From the NCBI GenBank assembly GCA_016177305.1, contig JACOVK010000061.1, positions 1-40,985 on the forward strand: a DNA stretch of 40,985 nt. The letters are read 5' to 3'. Below are positions 1 through 38,345 of the stretch, piece after piece. Under the pieces are notes generated by a model, which had not been told where the DNA came from, ran no database searches, and saw only the letters and a program-made list of their open reading frames with translations. The DNA is from Parcubacteria group bacterium. GTDB taxonomy: Bacteria > Patescibacteriota > Patescibacteriia > UBA2169. Numbering within the stretch: position 1 is the first letter of the stretch; each line of letters opens with the position of its first letter. Position numbers and translations under genes: made by a program.

Positions 1-13
1 GCTTCGGCTTTCG

Positions 14-74
14 TCCGCCTCTTCCTCTAAGATTTTTTCTTAACTCGCGAGTACGCGAGCCCAAGAAAAAATCT
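14..74. repeat. Copy 1 of a conserved hairpin element. Outer 12-bp stem AGATTTTTTCTT/AAGAAAAAATCT, inner 6-bp GC stem CTCGCG/CGCGAG, plus a conserved flank TCTTCCT.
   Basis: Read directly. Outer arms at 30-41 and 63-74, inner arms at 44-49 and 54-59. A second copy lies at 12783-12842 with an identical outer stem and a compensated inner stem. Confidence 0.7.
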
Positions 75-96
75 GTAAAAATACAAAAGAAGTATA

Positions 97-351
97 TCAA
101 ATCATGCCTTTTTGTAAAGGTATTCCGTCCGGCACTTCCAAAACTTTCTCGCGCGATGTTTCGCCCCGGACAATACGGATGCTTGACTTGGAAACGCCCC
201 ACGCGTCCGCCAAAAACGCAACCAAGGCTCTGTTGGCTTTTCCCTCAACCGGCGGCGCAGCAATGCGCACCCGCAAGATGCCGTTTTTAAGCCCGACAAT
301 TTTATTCTCTTTTGAACGGGGCGTAATTTTTATAGTGATGCGTTGCGGCAT
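97..351 (-). CDS. DUF167 (YggU/UPF0235) family protein
   Basis: 84 aa with an ATG start. The segment ...RVRIAAPPVEGKANRALVAFLADAWGVSKSSIRIVRGETSREKVLEV matches the YggU pattern APPV(D/E)GkAN..L..FLa...v.ks.i.i..G..sR.K. Confidence 0.8.
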   Translation of the reverse strand: MPQRITIKITPRSKENKIVGLKNGILRVRIAAPPVEGKANRALVAFLADAWGVSKSSIRIVRGETSREKVLEVPDGIPLQKGMI

Positions 352-364
352 ACCATCATACTAC

Positions 365-407
365 TACAAAAAAAGAGAGGCCGCACTGTACAACATGTAG
401 TGCGGCC
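365..407 (-). terminator. Rho-independent terminator of the tRNA operon
   Basis: Stem GGCCGCAC/GTGCGGCC (379-386 / 400-407). On the minus strand it is followed by CTCTCTTTTTTTG. Confidence 0.6.
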
Positions 408-415
408 CCACAAGA

Positions 416-541
416 TGGTGGAGTCTGAGGGACTCGAACCCCCGACCGGAATCTCGCGTCTCCACGAATCAGCCAAGCGCTTGGCTTGATGCGCCGAACA
501 ACGACGTTCAATTCTGCTCTATCCGCCTGAGCTAAGACCCC
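416..541 (-). tRNA. Atypical 126-nt tRNA. It has an Ala-type acceptor (G3:U70, A73, encoded CCA), canonical D and T arms, and 56 nt between the anticodon-stem strands instead of a 7-nt loop. No anticodon could be identified.
   Basis: Minus-strand reading: GGGGTCT TA GCTC AGGCGGATA GAGC A GAATT [56 nt] GATTC CGGTC GGGGG TTCGAGT CCCTC AGACTCC A CCA. The insertion contains a 16-nt perfect palindrome, AGCCAAGCGCTTGGCT. Confidence 0.5.
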
Positions 542-677
542 AACCTATAAGGTGCGCCGCAGCCTCAATGAAGAATGCGTCAGCCTTTGAGAGGACTCAC
601 CTCTGGACGATCCAGAGGCTAATCGGGGAGTACGATGATCCGTAACCCATTGATAGCGGCGCACGTTCGGAAAGAAC

Positions 678-753
678 TGGAGCGGGCGACGGGAATTGAA
701 CCCGCAACCTCCGCGTTGGCAACGCGGCGCTCTACCAATTGAGCTAAACCCGC
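678..753 (-). tRNA. tRNA-Gly(GCC)
   Basis: 76-nt cloverleaf: GCGGGTT TA GCTC..GAGC G CCGCG TTGCCAA CGCGG AGGTT GCGGG TTCAATT CCCGT CGCCCGC T CCA. The anticodon loop TTGCCAA gives GCC. Confidence 0.9.
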
Positions 754-790
754 TCCAAAACCATTGCATTGCGAAACAACGATAAAATCC

Positions 791-819
791 AGTTTATAAA
801 AATTTCCAAACTATGTCAA
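791..819 (-). promoter_or_regulatory. Sigma70-type promoter of the tRNA-Gly / atypical-tRNA operon
   Basis: On the minus strand: TTGACA (819-814), a 17-nt spacer, then TAAACT (796-791). The predicted start is about 30 nt upstream of tRNA-Gly. Confidence 0.55.
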
Positions 820-842
820 GCTCTTGCGCAGGGGGCCCCTAT

Positions 843-2129
843 CTATTTTGAAACTTTCTCCGCCAATGTTCTAAAAATCTTCCGGCTCGCAAGCATGTTG
901 CGGACATAGTCGCGGTATTCGCGGCTCTCAAGCTCTGCCGCCAGTTCAGGCTGGGATGCATACGCCTTTTTGGCGATGGCAAGCTCGCGCGCAACCTCAT
1001 CATCGCTCACTTGCACCCTTTCTTGCTTGCCGAACTCCCGGCCCACTAGGCTGATTTTAACGCGGTGCCCGGCTTTGGGGCGGAATTCTTTTTCCAGGTC
1101 CTCTTTTGACTTTTTGATGCTCTCAAGATAATCCCCAAACTTCATGCCCTGGCGAATAACATTCTGCTCAAGCTCAGCGAGCATCTTCCGGGCCTCGCGC
1201 GCAATGAGCTGATCCGGAATCTCGCCAAACTCCGACCGCTTGACCAGCTCGTCCATGGCCGCCATTTCAAAGCGCTCCCGCTCTTCGCGTTCTTTTTCGT
1301 ACTGCAGGCTCCGGCGGATCTGCTCGCGCAAATCTTCCGCAGTCTGGCTGTGGCCAAGCTCTTGTGCGAACGCATCGTCCATTTCGGGTACGGTGCGCTC
1401 AAATACTTGTTTGACGGAAACGCTAAACTGCGCGGGCTTGCCGGCCAATGACTTTGCGTAGTACTGCTCCGGAAATTTCAGTTCAAACTCTTTTTTGCCG
1501 CCCGCTTTCAAACCAATAATTTGCTCTTCAAAGCCCGGAATAAACCTGCCTTCACCGAGCGTCAATGGAAAATCTTTAGCGGCGCCGTGCTCAATCACCA
1601 CGCCGTCCCGTTTGACCTCCAAATCCAGAATGACTTTGTCGCCCTGTTTTGCCGGACGGCCGACTGCCGCCTCTGTGGCATGCATTTCCCGGATGGTTTG
1701 GACGGCCTTTGCAACATCCGCCTCCGTGGCGGCTGCGTCTTTCTTTTGAACCTTGATCTTGGAAACATCCCCGAGTACAACCGAAGGGAGCAGTACCATG
1801 ACCGCCTTGTAGGAAACGCCGAACGGCGGCACCATTTTGGTGATGCTGATGTCCGGGTTTCCAGCAACCTCAATGCCGCGCTCGCGGATCGCGCTCTCAA
1901 GCGTTCTGCCCACGATTGCCTGGAGCGCTCCTTCATAAATCTTGGCTTCCCCGCCCACGTGGCGGCTCAAGATATCGTACGGAGCCGCGCCTTTTCTAAA
2001 TCCCGGAACCTCAATGTGCCCCGCGAGGCGCTTGGCCGCAGCCTGTAAATCCCGCTCAATATCAGCGCGCGCGAGCTCAACCGCAAGCTCCAAAACAGCC
2101 GGGTTTGGTTTGTTCTCGGTAATCTGCAT
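843..2129 (-). CDS. tig: Trigger factor
   Basis: The N-terminus MQITENK...EVPGFRKGAAPYDIL carries the PGFRKGk.P ribosome-binding signature. An FKBP-like middle region (GDKVILDLE..DG) and a long helical C-terminal domain follow. I used the ATG at 2129 because the longer ORF would overlap plsC. Confidence 0.9.
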   Translation of the reverse strand: MQITENKPNPAVLELAVELARADIERDLQAAAKRLAGHIEVPGFRKGAAPYDILSRHVGGEAKIYEGALQAIVGRTLESAIRERGIEVAGNPDISITKMVPPFGVSYKAVMVLLPSVVLGDVSKIKVQKKDAAATEADVAKAVQTIREMHATEAAVGRPAKQGDKVILDLEVKRDGVVIEHGAAKDFPLTLGEGRFIPGFEEQIIGLKAGGKKEFELKFPEQYYAKSLAGKPAQFSVSVKQVFERTVPEMDDAFAQELGHSQTAEDLREQIRRSLQYEKEREERERFEMAAMDELVKRSEFGEIPDQLIAREARKMLAELEQNVIRQGMKFGDYLESIKKSKEDLEKEFRPKAGHRVKISLVGREFGKQERVQVSDDEVARELAIAKKAYASQPELAAELESREYRDYVRNMLASRKIFRTLAEKVSK

Positions 2130-2145
2130 GAAACGTAAATCTACC

Positions 2146-2811
2146 TTACGCTGCGCATTCGTGCAAGCGGGGACGCTTTGCGCACAGCTTGCCAATCTCA
2201 ACCATAATACGGTCCGTTACCTCATACAAAAGCTCGCGGGTCACCGGGGTGCTTCGGTAGCCCGCAAGGTTAATCGGCTTGCCGAATGCTATTGCAGCCG
2301 TATTGCGCTTAAAAAGAAACTCACGAATGGCATCCGCAGCGCTGGTGATGTGCGGCCCCTGGTACCCGACCGGAATAACCGGCGCGCCCGTCGCGAGCGC
2401 AAGCCGCGCAACCCCCGTCTTTCCCAGGGCGAGCGAACGCGGATCCGCATTGCGCGTCCCTTCCGGATACAGGGCAACCGCCTCATTGCGCGCGAGCGCA
2501 GCCGCTGCCTGCTTTAAAACTTTTGCCGGAGCGCGCCAGTCAATAAGCAGCGTGGCGAACCAGTTGCGCAGGGGCTTGGTCCACCAGGGACCCCACCAGT
2601 AATCGTCACGCGCCACAAACCAAACCGGCACCCGGTTTTGCAGGTAGGAAAGCGTTCCTAAGAGCCACTGGTCCGGAATGCTTACGTGGTTGCTGGCGAA
2701 GATGAAGGGCCCTTGGGCGGGAATGTTGCCAAGCCCTTCGGCTTTCCGGAGAAACGCGAAGTATGTAAACCGGAACAGTGGCCGCAGAATGGGGTACAGC
2801 GTGCGCGGCAT
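2146..2811 (-). CDS. plsC: 1-acyl-sn-glycerol-3-phosphate acyltransferase family protein
   Basis: Acyltransferase motifs NHVSIPD (NHxxxxD) and YPEGTR are present. The start is ATG at 2811, with an alternative GTG at 2817. Confidence 0.8.
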   Translation of the reverse strand: MPRTLYPILRPLFRFTYFAFLRKAEGLGNIPAQGPFIFASNHVSIPDQWLLGTLSYLQNRVPVWFVARDDYWWGPWWTKPLRNWFATLLIDWRAPAKVLKQAAAALARNEAVALYPEGTRNADPRSLALGKTGVARLALATGAPVIPVGYQGPHITSAADAIREFLFKRNTAAIAFGKPINLAGYRSTPVTRELLYEVTDRIMVEIGKLCAKRPRLHECAA

Positions 2812-2817
2812 AGCCAC

Positions 2818-4812
2818 TTAGACTAAAAAGCTCACCATCAAAAGCGCAACAATGTTAATCACTTTGATCATGGGGTTGATGGCCGGGCCTGCGGTGTCTT
2901 TGTACGGATCGCCGACCGTATCCCCGGTCACGCTTGCCGCGTGCGCCTCGCTTCCCTTGCCCCCGTGCCCGCCTGCTTCAATCAATTTTTTGGCGTTGTC
3001 CCAAGCTCCGCCGCCGGTGGTCATGGAAATGGCCACGAACAATCCCGTAACAATGGATCCGACAAGCATGCCCCCCAGGGCAACGGGCCCCAAAAGCCAT
3101 GCAACGACAATGGGCGAAAGCACGGGAATGAGCGCGGGCACGAACATTTGGCGCAAGGCATCCTTGGTGACGATGTCAACGCACGTGCCGTAATCCGGCT
3201 TAGCGCGCCCCTCCATAAGCCCGGGGATCTCCCGAAACTGCCGGCGCACCTCTTCCACCACCTTGCCCGCGGTTTTTGACACTGCTTCCATCACGAGCGC
3301 GCCGAAATAGTAGGGCAAGAGGCCCCCAACAAAAAGCCCGATGATCACGAGCGGATCCGAGAGCCGGAATAAAAGCTCGCGCCCGTGCAAAACAAATTCC
3401 TGGGAGTACGAAGCGAAGAGCACCAGCGCGGCCAATCCCGCGCTTCCGATGGCATAGCCTTTGGTGACCGCCTTGGTGGTGTTGCCCACGCTATCCAGCT
3501 TGTCCGTAACCTCGCGGACCTCTTTGGAAAGCCCCGCCATCTCCGCAATGCCGCCCGCATTATCCGTGATTGGGCCGAACGCGTCTATGGCAACGATTAT
3601 GCCGGCAAGCGAGAGCATGGAAACCGCGGCAACCGCGATGCCATAGAGTTCGGCAAGCCCGTACGATCCCCAGATTCCGAGGGCAATGACAATCACCGGC
3701 AGCGCGGTTGCGCGCATGGAAAGCGCGAGCCCGGCAATGATGTTCGGGCCGTGCCCTTTGGTGGATGCTTCGGCGATTGTTTTAACGGGCTGGTATCTGT
3801 CGGACGTGTAGTACTCGGTGATGATAACCAACAGCGCAGTCACGCCAAGCCCCACGAGAGAAGCGTAAAACAAGTTCAACGGAAGGTAGTGGCCGTTTCC
3901 GTCCATGAGCGCGAGTGTGGCGTAGTAAAACCCGATTGCCGCGAGCGAGCCCGATGCAACCAGTCCCTTGTAGAGCGCGGCCATGATGTTCTCTTTGCGC
4001 CCGAGGCGCACAAAGGCGAGGCCGATGACGGACGCCACAATGGAGATGCCGCCCAAGACGAGCGGGTACAGAACCGCGTTTTCAAAATCGCCGAACACCA
4101 GCGTCCCTAAAAGCATGCTCGCCACCGCGGTGACCGCGTACGTCTCAAAGAGGTCGGCCGCCATGCCCGCGGTGTCCCCCACGTTGTCTCCTACGTTGTC
4201 CGCAATCACGGCCGGGTTGCGCGGATCATCTTCGGGAATGTTCTTTTCCACCTTGCCGACCAGGTCAGCGCCGACATCCGCGGCCTTGGTGTAGATGCCG
4301 CCGCCCAGGCGCGCGAAAATAGAGATCAAGCTTCCTCCGAATCCCAAGCCGATGAGGGCGTTCACATCATGCGTGATTGCGTAGAACCCGGCAACACCGA
4401 GCAAGCCCAGGCCAACCACTAAAAATCCGGTGACGGCGCCGCCGCGCACCGCAACGGCCATTGCTTTTGAGAGGCCCCGGCTCGCCGCATGCGCCACGCG
4501 CACGTTCGCGCGCACCGCAACATTCATGCCTACGTACCCGGCAATTGAGGAAAGGGCTGCGCCGGTCAGAAAACCCCATGCTATGCTCCAGGAAAGTCCG
4601 AACCCAAGCGCAAAAAACACAAAAAATGCCACGACCGAAATGGTTCGGTACTGGCGGTTGAGGTATGCCTTGGAACCTTTTTGGATTGCCTCGGCGATTT
4701 GGCGCATTTTTTCATCGCCGGCTTTGCGGCCCAGCACCCAGGCCGCGAGAATCACGCCCGCGACAATGGCGAGCACGGAAGCTCCCAATGAGAAGAGAAG
4801 GTACGTAGACAT
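2818..4812 (-). CDS. hppA: Membrane-bound H+-translocating pyrophosphatase with the K+-independent signature
   Basis: 664 aa and polytopic. Motifs [18 protein letters not shown] and [18 protein letters not shown] are present, together with [10 protein letters not shown] (the Lys/Thr variant). Confidence 0.93.
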
Positions 4813-12721: not shown

Positions 12722-12782
12722 GCGTCAGCCGCGCGTTGCGGCTTCCGTATCCGGGCTTCGCCCGAATACTCCAGCCTCCACA

Positions 12783-12842
12783 CGCGTCTTCCTTTCAGAT
12801 TTTTTCTTAACTCCGCTAAACGCGGAGCCCAAGAAAAAATCT
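12783..12842. repeat. Copy 2 of the conserved hairpin element. Same outer stem as copy 1, inner stem CTCCGC/GCGGAG.
   Basis: Outer arms at 12797-12808 and 12831-12842, inner arms at 12811-12816 and 12822-12827. The flank TCTTCCT is conserved. Confidence 0.7.
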
Positions 12843-38006: not shown

Positions 38007-38345
38007 TCAACCAAACACAAATAGCAGTTTCTCTCTTATCTTTTGGAATTCATCCCGAGGTATGCTCGCTATTTTTTTCTCTAACCGCTGCTTGTCAAGC
38101 GCGCGTATTTGATGGACGAGCACGACCGAATCATAGTCAAGCCCTGATGCATCCTTAGCCAGGAGGTAGGTGGTAAGCTTTCCTTGGGCGCCAAGGTTTG
38201 TGGTGATTGGCGCTATGATGACCGTGCTTAGGTGCTTGTTGAGGATATTGGCTTGCATGATCAACACAGGCCTAAAGCCCGCTTGCTCGTGCCCCCTGGT
38301 CGGATTGAGGTTTGCGAGCGCTATGTCGCCTTGATGGAAATCCAT
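38007..38345 (-). CDS. mazF: Type II toxin, PemK/MazF family
   Basis: GDIALANLNPTRGHEQAGFRPVLIMQ...LSTVIIAPITT. Confidence 0.85.
   Translation of the reverse strand: MDFHQGDIALANLNPTRGHEQAGFRPVLIMQANILNKHLSTVIIAPITTNLGAQGKLTTYLLAKDASGLDYDSVVLVHQIRALDKQRLEKKIASIPRDEFQKIREKLLFVFG

Follow-up and report, generated by a model that had tools for sequence, protein, structure and literature searches.

A tRNA-Ala-derived gene with a long arm in place of its anticodon loop in a Parcubacteria contig

Some transfer RNAs (tRNAs) and tRNA-shaped RNAs have jobs other than protein synthesis. A non-proteinogenic tRNA-Gly of Staphylococcus serves FemXAB, and Ala-tRNA serves MurM/FemX and alanyl-phosphatidylglycerol synthase. 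In YrlA the long stem holds the ends of the RNA, and the acceptor-like helix is closed and has no CCA. The tRNA-shaped mascRNA acts as a 3'-end processing signal for MALAT1. Group I introns in tRNA anticodon loops have a catalytic core of about 200 nucleotides (nt) or more (P3-P9); a U precedes their 5' splice site, and their last nucleotide is a G. This report concerns a 126-nt gene that has the body of an Ala-type tRNA and a long arm where the anticodon loop should be. It lies at 416-541 on the minus strand of contig JACOVK010000061.1 (GCA_016177305.1; 40,985 nt, the whole of it called the window below), from a Parcubacteria group bacterium, an ultra-small groundwater member of the Candidate Phyla Radiation (CPR). 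The explanation that seems best, held tentatively and a little short of an even chance, is that the gene encodes a tRNA-Ala-derived, anticodon-less, long-armed RNA which would be made and matured like a tRNA and accept alanine, but would not decode.

The locus was compared with the closest described systems and with about 230 fetched contigs or loci, which carry L-numbers. It shares with canonical bacterial tRNA-Ala the pairs G2:C71, G3:U70 and G4:C69, A73, an encoded CCA, a G18G19 D arm, a T arm with U54 and A58, a 5-nt variable loop, G15:C48, and a tRNA-type leader, promoter and terminator. It differs in having neither a 7-nt loop nor an NGC anticodon and in being 126 rather than 76 nt long. 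Like transfer-messenger RNA (tmRNA, RF00023), it combines Ala identity with the lack of an anticodon, and its core sends out a long helix at the anticodon-stem position. Unlike tmRNA it has a complete D stem, no pseudoknots and no reading frame conserved in L026, a locus with a similar Ala-type gene; it is under half the size of the smallest tmRNAs, and its score of 23.7 bits is below the cut-off, which is 47. The joining of a tRNA-shaped module to a long protein-binding stem, a YrlA feature, is common to the window RNA and the Ro-bound Y-RNA-like mimics, but the ends of the window RNA form a chargeable acceptor stem. A permissive Rfam search of window 300-900 (E <= 10) gave no Y-RNA match, and no TROVE domain was found among the open reading frames (ORFs) of the window. 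Non-proteinogenic tRNAs share the proposed logic of a chargeable carrier kept from decoding, and Ala and Gly are their typical amino acids; in contrast to the window RNA they keep a normal anticodon arm and length, and no such transferase gene was found near the locus.

The nearest published item is the set of "enigmatic" short introns in Lak megaphage tRNAs (PMC6784885). Those introns, and the inserts of four metagenome genes in our collection (L049, L060, L051 and L106), resemble the window insert in placing a short hairpin in the anticodon loop of a bacterial-type tRNA. Their removal rebuilds the loop, whereas removal of the window and L026 inserts does not. Nested CPR tRNA-Ala cassettes (L020, L023, L029, L032) also have an anticodon region interrupted by hairpin-capable DNA, but the window insert has no inner tRNA, no TCCC...GGGA-type termini and no second copy, and its outer gene is undamaged. 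No publication on nested hairpin-ended CPR tRNA-Ala cassettes was found in the literature, and neither the Rfam families nor the literature yielded a description of genes like the one in the window.

The gene is a derivative of an Ala-type tRNA. Read along the minus strand, it begins with the acceptor 5' strand GGGGUCU (541-535), followed by U8 and A9, the D arm GCUC-AGGCGGAUA-GAGC (532-516) and A26. Next come the 5' strand of an anticodon-type stem, GAAUU (514-510), an insert of 56 nt (509-454), and the 3' strand of the stem, GAUUC (453-449). A 5-nt variable loop, CGGUC, leads to the T arm GGGGG-UUCGAGU-CCCUC (443-427), the acceptor 3' strand AGACUCC, and A73 plus CCA at 419-416. A scripted check found 7/7 acceptor pairs formed (GC GC GU GC UA CG UA) with discriminator A, and all core tertiary positions in place (U8, A14, G15:C48, G18G19, U54-A58). 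The acceptor, D and T arms are canonical and fully paired, with no stem damage, and the identity set of alanyl-tRNA synthetase (AlaRS), G3:U70 plus A73, is complete. The initial annotation, a model's reading of the sequence, had described a 126-nt gene with Ala identity on a tRNA body and a 5-bp stem, GAATT/GATTC, enclosing 56 nt; the scripted check of stems and core positions confirms the former and the sequence the latter. Neither default ARAGORN nor the Rfam tRNA model calls the gene.

In place of an anticodon stem-loop, the RNA has a long arm of about 66 nt (449-514, minus strand). It is predicted to fold as an irregular single rod of about 25 bp that occupies the place of the 7-nt loop. 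At its base the rod has the 5-bp GAAUU/GAUUC stem, then a 3x3 loop GAA/CGA and the 4 bp CGUC/GACG; above these, an internal loop separates the helix from a tip hairpin with about 10 bp. The 3x3 loop, in which tandem G.A pairs are possible, and the 4-bp helix had both been pointed out from the sequence, and both recur in the predicted folds. A model containing the 5-bp stem has an energy of -45.3 kcal/mol, and the minimum free energy fold has -46.5 kcal/mol. Script and folds place a perfect 16-nt palindrome, AGCCAAGCGCTTGGCT, at 471-486, where it folds into the tip hairpin, whose loop is GCGC. The palindrome reported earlier is therefore present, but it is unusual only locally: 98 of 200 shuffles of the whole window hold one. 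The reported GATTC repeat is also present (RNA positions 72 and 89), but it is at chance expectation for a 5-mer in 126 nt.

As judged from folding models, arms of this kind are RNA-level structures on the tRNA strand. The window arm folds with -23.1 kcal/mol in the sense and -17.1 kcal/mol in the antisense direction. The difference is larger for the L026 arm (-18.8 vs -5.7 kcal/mol), in which 8 of 23 pairs are G.U and z = -4.2. Across 15 families, arms favour the tRNA-sense strand by a mean of -4.2 kcal/mol (Wilcoxon p = 0.012). Evidently recent inserts in other contigs are still flanked by remnants of the 7-nt loop. No such remnants adjoin the window insert or the L026 insert, which implies an old, remodelled arm on a still-perfect body. 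Neither the rest of the window nor any of the roughly 230 fetched loci holds a second copy of the insert. Pairing of the insert with the upstream structured RNA does not exceed what shuffled sequences give, for the window and for L026 alike. A motif common to the window and L026, GUUGUUC(U)GGCGC, was dropped: its alignment score falls within multiple-testing noise, and a scan of the collection gave only chance matches upstream of ordinary tRNAs.

The modelled RNA is almost certainly unable to read codons. The string TGC is absent from the 126-nt gene, as had been noted before and as a script confirmed. A single-deletion scan tried all cuts from nt 27 up to the T stem, provided that what remained had a normal anticodon arm and 4-5 nt of variable loop. 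No cut gave U33, and none restored a loop carrying both U33 and NGC, whether in the window, where the 5-nt CGGUC served as variable loop, or in L026. The earlier statement that no U33 loop can be formed holds for this variable loop, but a sole U33 solution exists if the first GAUUC is used. Its loop is CUUGGCU, with a Pro anticodon and C37, in a fold 5 kcal/mol weaker. An intron search with ARAGORN, which the initial annotation had proposed, gave a call and no canonical Ala anticodon arm: 'tRNA-Pro(UGG)' with a 32-nt intron, the first GAUUC as 3' strand and a 22-nt variable arm. This call was rejected because its fold falls short of the rod by 5 kcal/mol in stability, has C37, sets a Pro anticodon on an Ala acceptor, puts the intron at the stem edge (31/32) and has no counterpart in L026. 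The calls of ARAGORN's intron mode are forced fits here, because four related genes get conflicting answers: Pro for the window gene, and 'Stop', Thr and Pyl for three relatives. The earlier finding of no usable anticodon arm is thus borne out by default ARAGORN, the Rfam tRNA model and the deletion scan. GCA makes up 104 of 618 alanine codons (17%) in ten housekeeping genes, so a tRNA with a UGC anticodon must exist somewhere in the genome.

The stretch is not an assembly artefact, because the same DNA is present in contigs from four groundwater metagenome runs, with 0-1 differences and with the insert in all of them, and in L234, a separate contig from the metagenome-assembled genome GCA_016186285.1, at 100% identity over about 516 aligned nt. 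No sequencing run of any kind was found that carries L026. Around the gene lie chromosomal housekeeping genes of the CPR/Patescibacteria type identified with Pfam, nusA-hppA-plsC-tig upstream and a DUF167 gene downstream. Two of them served as synteny anchors: tig (trigger factor; 843-2201, minus strand, Pfam) and the DUF167/YggU gene (97-351, minus strand, Pfam and neighbour tables).

Between these anchors the sequence predicts that a tRNA-Gly, a structured leader and the odd RNA are co-transcribed from a single promoter. The promoter is of sigma-70 type, TTGACA-17-TAAACT (819-791, minus strand); it has 10/12 consensus matches, is the sole promoter-like site in 300-900 and is also kept in L234. 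The first gene of the unit is an ordinary tRNA-Gly(GCC) (678-753, minus strand), found by ARAGORN and scored at 64.9 bits by the Rfam tRNA model. It is followed by a 136-nt structured leader or small RNA (542-677, minus strand) with a closing helix GUGCGCCGC/GCGGCGCAC (664-552). The leader ends 10 nt ahead of the odd RNA and has no Rfam match. An intrinsic terminator (366-409, minus strand; -21.7 kcal/mol, z = -3.4) starts 6 nt past the CCA and consists of a 14-bp hairpin, then UCUCUUUUUUU; a bulge in the hairpin made a simple scan overlook it. With the promoter at 819-791 and the terminator at 409-366, the intact promoter-tRNA-Gly-spacer-tRNA-terminator unit first read from the sequence stands.

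Structured elements of this kind were also seen elsewhere. The GUGCGCCGC/GCGGCGCAC element stands alone, with no flanking tRNA, in L222 (3380-3640) and L224 (1660-1920), where tig is 73% identical and the element has its own TTGACA-17-TAATAT promoter and its own terminator. Among the three copies found by blastn (window, L222 and L224), the inner hairpins differ in sequence yet pair. Ordinary tRNAs of the clade are preceded by two-hairpin leaders as well, at window 1-100 and 12722-12842 (minus strand) and at L002 4650-4770 and 5440-5555. Such a leader opens with a 12-bp stem that is A/T-rich and encloses a GC inner stem; an irregular hairpin of 60-90 nt follows and ends about 8-10 nt ahead of the tRNA; the window starts inside one of them.

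If the favoured explanation of a chargeable, non-decoding RNA is right, the promoter would drive one transcript containing the tRNA-Gly, the structured leader and the odd RNA, ending at the intrinsic terminator. The odd RNA would then be matured like a tRNA and alanylated by AlaRS through G3:U70. The elements needed by RNase P, the 3' trimming enzymes and AlaRS are all canonical: acceptor stem, G3:U70, A73, CCA and the D/T elbow. In work by Hou & Schimmel and by Francklyn & Schimmel, minihelices were reportedly charged by AlaRS via G3:U70, with no anticodon needed. The RNA should be alanylated, because AlaRS reads the G3:U70 acceptor helix and needs no anticodon. On geometry it should have no function in the ribosomal A site, because the arm is several helical turns too long and there is no anticodon. 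Since AlaRS charges any helix bearing G3:U70, a full tRNA body without an anticodon would be a ready-made alanine carrier barred from ribosomal decoding. What job it might do is speculative: it could be an alanyl donor to a non-ribosomal acceptor, a decoy or regulator of a tRNA-binding factor, or a template-less tmRNA-like rescuer. The initial annotation had offered an interrupted, an intron-bearing or a repurposed tRNA. Repurposing fits best, an intron is disfavoured because no loop is restored and no family matches, and interruption survives as a rival.

Similar genes were looked for in several ways. Reference genomes were scanned with a pattern for Ala-type genes whose D and T regions are 65-95 nt apart; it gave 16 matches, of which 15 were tRNA-Ala fragments beside complete tRNAs and one, L026, was a true long-armed gene. 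The L026 gene is 115 nt long, Ala-type (G3:U70, A73, CCA), and has a 15-bp continuous helix with an apical hairpin. It lies directly after a tig that is 53% identical to the tig of the window. The two genes share position, Ala type and A26; their inserts are not alignable. Contigs of the same CPR order linked to tig were also fetched and scanned for tRNA-like genes after tig. This revealed 98-99-nt genes of a U73 type (discriminator U73) immediately after tig in L005 and L235, whose tig proteins are 63% identical to each other. The inserts of these genes are 29-30 nt long, the Rfam tRNA model scores the genes at 51 and 56 bits and leaves a local gap at the anticodon loop, and no deletion restores the loop. 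Post-tig genes with a canonical body, an insert of at least 29 nt and no restorable loop are thus found in the window/L234 and in three other lineages of its CPR order, L026, L005 and L235. A tig-based scan with the L026 protein gave distant loci only, and in a search of phage genomes only the T arm matched.

The D and T arms of the L005 gene are identical to those of the L235 gene, and both genes have the variable loop NUGUC and the stem CAGGN/NCCUG. They seem to be of common origin, because the normal tRNA-Gly genes at these loci have none of these shared features. Four of the 7 acceptor-stem pairs are different in the two genes, yet all are still paired, and C2:G71, a pair of bacterial tRNA-Gly, has been lost from the L235 stem. 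Because the stems diverged by compensatory changes, selection rather than decay seems to have acted on this pair, and the sequences indicate that the U73-type body kept evolving under pairing constraint after it ceased to be a normal tRNA. In the locus comparison that had been suggested for the window gene, close relatives have no tRNA-Ala there at all, and three lineages have similar genes. Neither an ordinary 76-nt tRNA in the relatives nor a decayed copy in the window was seen, the combination that the initial annotation had taken to mark a simple pseudogene. Between tig and DUF167, L235 holds another odd tRNA-like gene, 83 nt long (3188-3270), with acceptor UGCGCUC/GGGCGCA, discriminator G and a variable region of 8 nt; its anticodon arm has the loop UUAAAAU and is preceded by five extra nt. 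The ARAGORN call for this gene is 'Phe(AAA)', and its Rfam tRNA score is 35.8 bits.

The pattern used for the reference genomes also matched 90 stretches in metagenome contigs. Of these, 38 contain no ordinary tRNA, and they form roughly fifteen heterogeneous families. Several members sit in dense tRNA arrays or IMG/VR viral contigs. Some inserts rebuild a perfect UGC loop on removal, and others, as in the window, do not. Together with the post-tig genes, these families raise a wider idea, which at present is rather doubtful: CPR bacteria and some phages may keep a new class of chargeable, anticodon-less, long-armed tRNA-like RNAs that work outside codon reading, with the slot after tig as its home in this order. 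If such a class is stable and charged, it would be a new type of tRNA-derived RNA beside tmRNA and the Y-RNA-like mimics. It would also mean an unrecognised use of aminoacyl-RNA in minimal-genome organisms, and would account for the 'broken' tRNAs called when CPR and phage genomes are annotated.

Individual members of the metagenome set are described here for their own sake. Ala-type tRNA genes with 28-50-nt hairpin inserts lie at L049 1466-1592, L060 319-424, L051 1674-1779 and L106 1593-1718. Taking out the insert, which lies between nt 34 and 35, rebuilds perfect UGC loops in L049 (UUU|GCAU), L060 (CUU|GCAC), L051 (CUU|GCAA) and L106, and the L106 insert is bounded by UUGCAA on each side. 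These four inserts may be true introns or fresh insertions. An HNH endonuclease ORF lies about 200 nt from the L049 gene. A long-armed Ala-like RNA at L131 5217-5345 is part of a 13-tRNA, AT-rich, phage-like array, and a TROVE/Ro60-like gene (PF05731, phrog_850; L131 6856-8448) lies 1.5 kb from it. The T stem covaries in the L068, L098 and L131 variants (AAAGG/CCTTT, ATTGG/CCAAT, ATCGG/CCGAT). Another long-armed Ala-like family is found in high-GC tRNA arrays at L112 1326-1442 and L126 1246-1365. Its tip hairpin, unrelated in sequence between the two contigs, is surrounded by the conserved unpaired motifs GCCGCACCC and CCGAAGG, and the family resembles the window gene in having a CGUC/GACG helix directly above the basal stem.

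Several observations weigh against a working, alanine-accepting RNA and against a single class. No RNA runs carrying the window sequence or L080 were found, and the expression, size and charging of the odd RNA are deduced from DNA. Within the 41-kb window there is no Fem-type transferase, MprF, SmpB, Ro/TROVE or RqcH. The stability of the window arm does not exceed that of its own shuffles significantly (z = -1.4). The window and L026 inserts are not significantly similar (z <= 4 in some 90 comparisons), and because the inserts are unrelated the two Ala-type genes could be independent events and not orthologues by descent. No such gene follows tig in about 13 other lineages, including the eight closest (71-79% tig identity), which suggests that the odd gene is dispensable or mobile. 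In addition, CPR tRNA-Ala genes are insertion hot spots, as in L020, L023, L029 and L032.

The last point leads to the main rival explanation, in which the gene is a dead or dying resident tRNA-Ala left by a nested-insert element. A hairpin insertion, either a worn mobile cassette or an excision footprint, would have destroyed the anticodon loop while a working tRNA-Ala(UGC) remained elsewhere, and the body would be intact since the event was recent or the footprint neutral. This seems unlikely but deserves to be taken seriously, because CPR tRNA-Ala genes do carry such inserts: tRNA-inside-tRNA arrangements with inverted-repeat ends occur at the same four CPR loci. The patchy distribution after tig and the unrelated inserts of the window and L026 would also fit, and L222 and L224, which keep the leader without a tRNA-like gene, are consistent with easy loss. 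If the gene is such a relic, it would be a record of insertions eroding tRNA genes in CPR genomes. However, the loop remnants expected at a recent insertion are missing, the insert has no other copy in the window or the fetched loci, and it lacks the inner tRNA and TCCC...GGGA-type ends of the nested cassettes. The rest of the gene is undamaged, in contrast to L029 and L032, where the outer gene is visibly truncated. In the L026 arm, pairing is rich in G.U and specific to one strand, which suggests maintenance at the RNA level, and the body of the U73-type pair went on evolving by compensatory change. A spliced intron, cut from the RNA by a novel bacterial mechanism to leave a working tRNA-Ala or else a tRNA that is class II-like and has CUUGGCU as its loop, is improbable, even with the precedent of short introns in Lak megaphage tRNAs (PMC6784885), the inserts in L049, L060, L051 and L106 that can be removed to give perfect UGC loops, the need of the genome for a GCA reader, and the 32-nt intron suggested by ARAGORN. 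That ARAGORN solution has the defects given above, its calls for the four related genes conflict, and no excision yields an Ala anticodon loop in the window or L026. At 56 nt the insert is far below group I or group II size, and the earlier remark that it is too short for a group I intron, with a core of about 200 nt or more, holds. Neither Intron_gpI nor any other intron family matched window 300-900 at E <= 10, and the hammerhead, twister, pistol, hatchet and HDV (hepatitis delta virus)-like ribozymes gave no match there either. A bulge-helix-bulge intron was rejected because the 3x3 loop is symmetric, with its triplets opposed and not offset by a 4-bp helix, and because no loop is restored.

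Two further explanations keep the tRNA shape as a working part. The tRNA shape may be processing punctuation, an RNase P cleavage signal that sets the 3' end of the upstream structured RNA, with alanylation irrelevant. The spacing invites this idea: the odd RNA begins 10 nt after a conserved structured RNA, which in L222 and L224 has its own terminator instead, and in L026 and L235 too a structured RNA ends 11-12 nt upstream of the odd gene. The chance seems slight, because the same kind of hairpin leader precedes ordinary tRNAs of the clade (L002; window 12722-12842), which makes it look like a generic tRNA leader and not a cargo. L005 has no leader, and punctuation would leave the long arm and the kept G3:U70, A73 and CCA unexplained. 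Alternatively, the alanylated RNA might enter stalled ribosomes with SmpB as a template-less tmRNA-like rescuer, the long helix acting as tmRNA helix 2. Its Ala acceptor, T arm and long helix do resemble the tRNA-like domain of tmRNA plus helix 2, and tmRNA is the only Rfam model that touches the gene (E = 1.2e-7). In that match, which stays below the cut-off, the acceptor and T-arm ends alone align and 328 model positions are skipped. The full D stem has no counterpart in tmRNA, which has none, and 126 nt leaves no room for pseudoknots. The short stop-bearing frames of the window (ASSQALG*) and of L026 are unrelated, so no tag ORF is kept; the U73-type relatives would not be alanylated, and no smpB lies nearby in the window. 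A rescuer of this kind is therefore a very long shot.

Other features were noted in passing. The nested CPR tRNA-Ala arrangements, in which a complete gene lies inside a broken outer gene, occupy the regions L020 1332-1470, L023 7223-7342, L029 6876-7006 and L032 1526-1640. Their flanks are short inverted repeats such as CCCCGCA...TGCGGGG and GTCCCTCA...TGAGGGA, and the outer genes are often truncated. Far from the odd gene, the window carries a MazF/PemK-type toxin gene (38007-38345, minus strand) and, after it, four paralogues in tandem that each carry the type IV secretion pilin domain PF18895 (38791-40982, minus strand).

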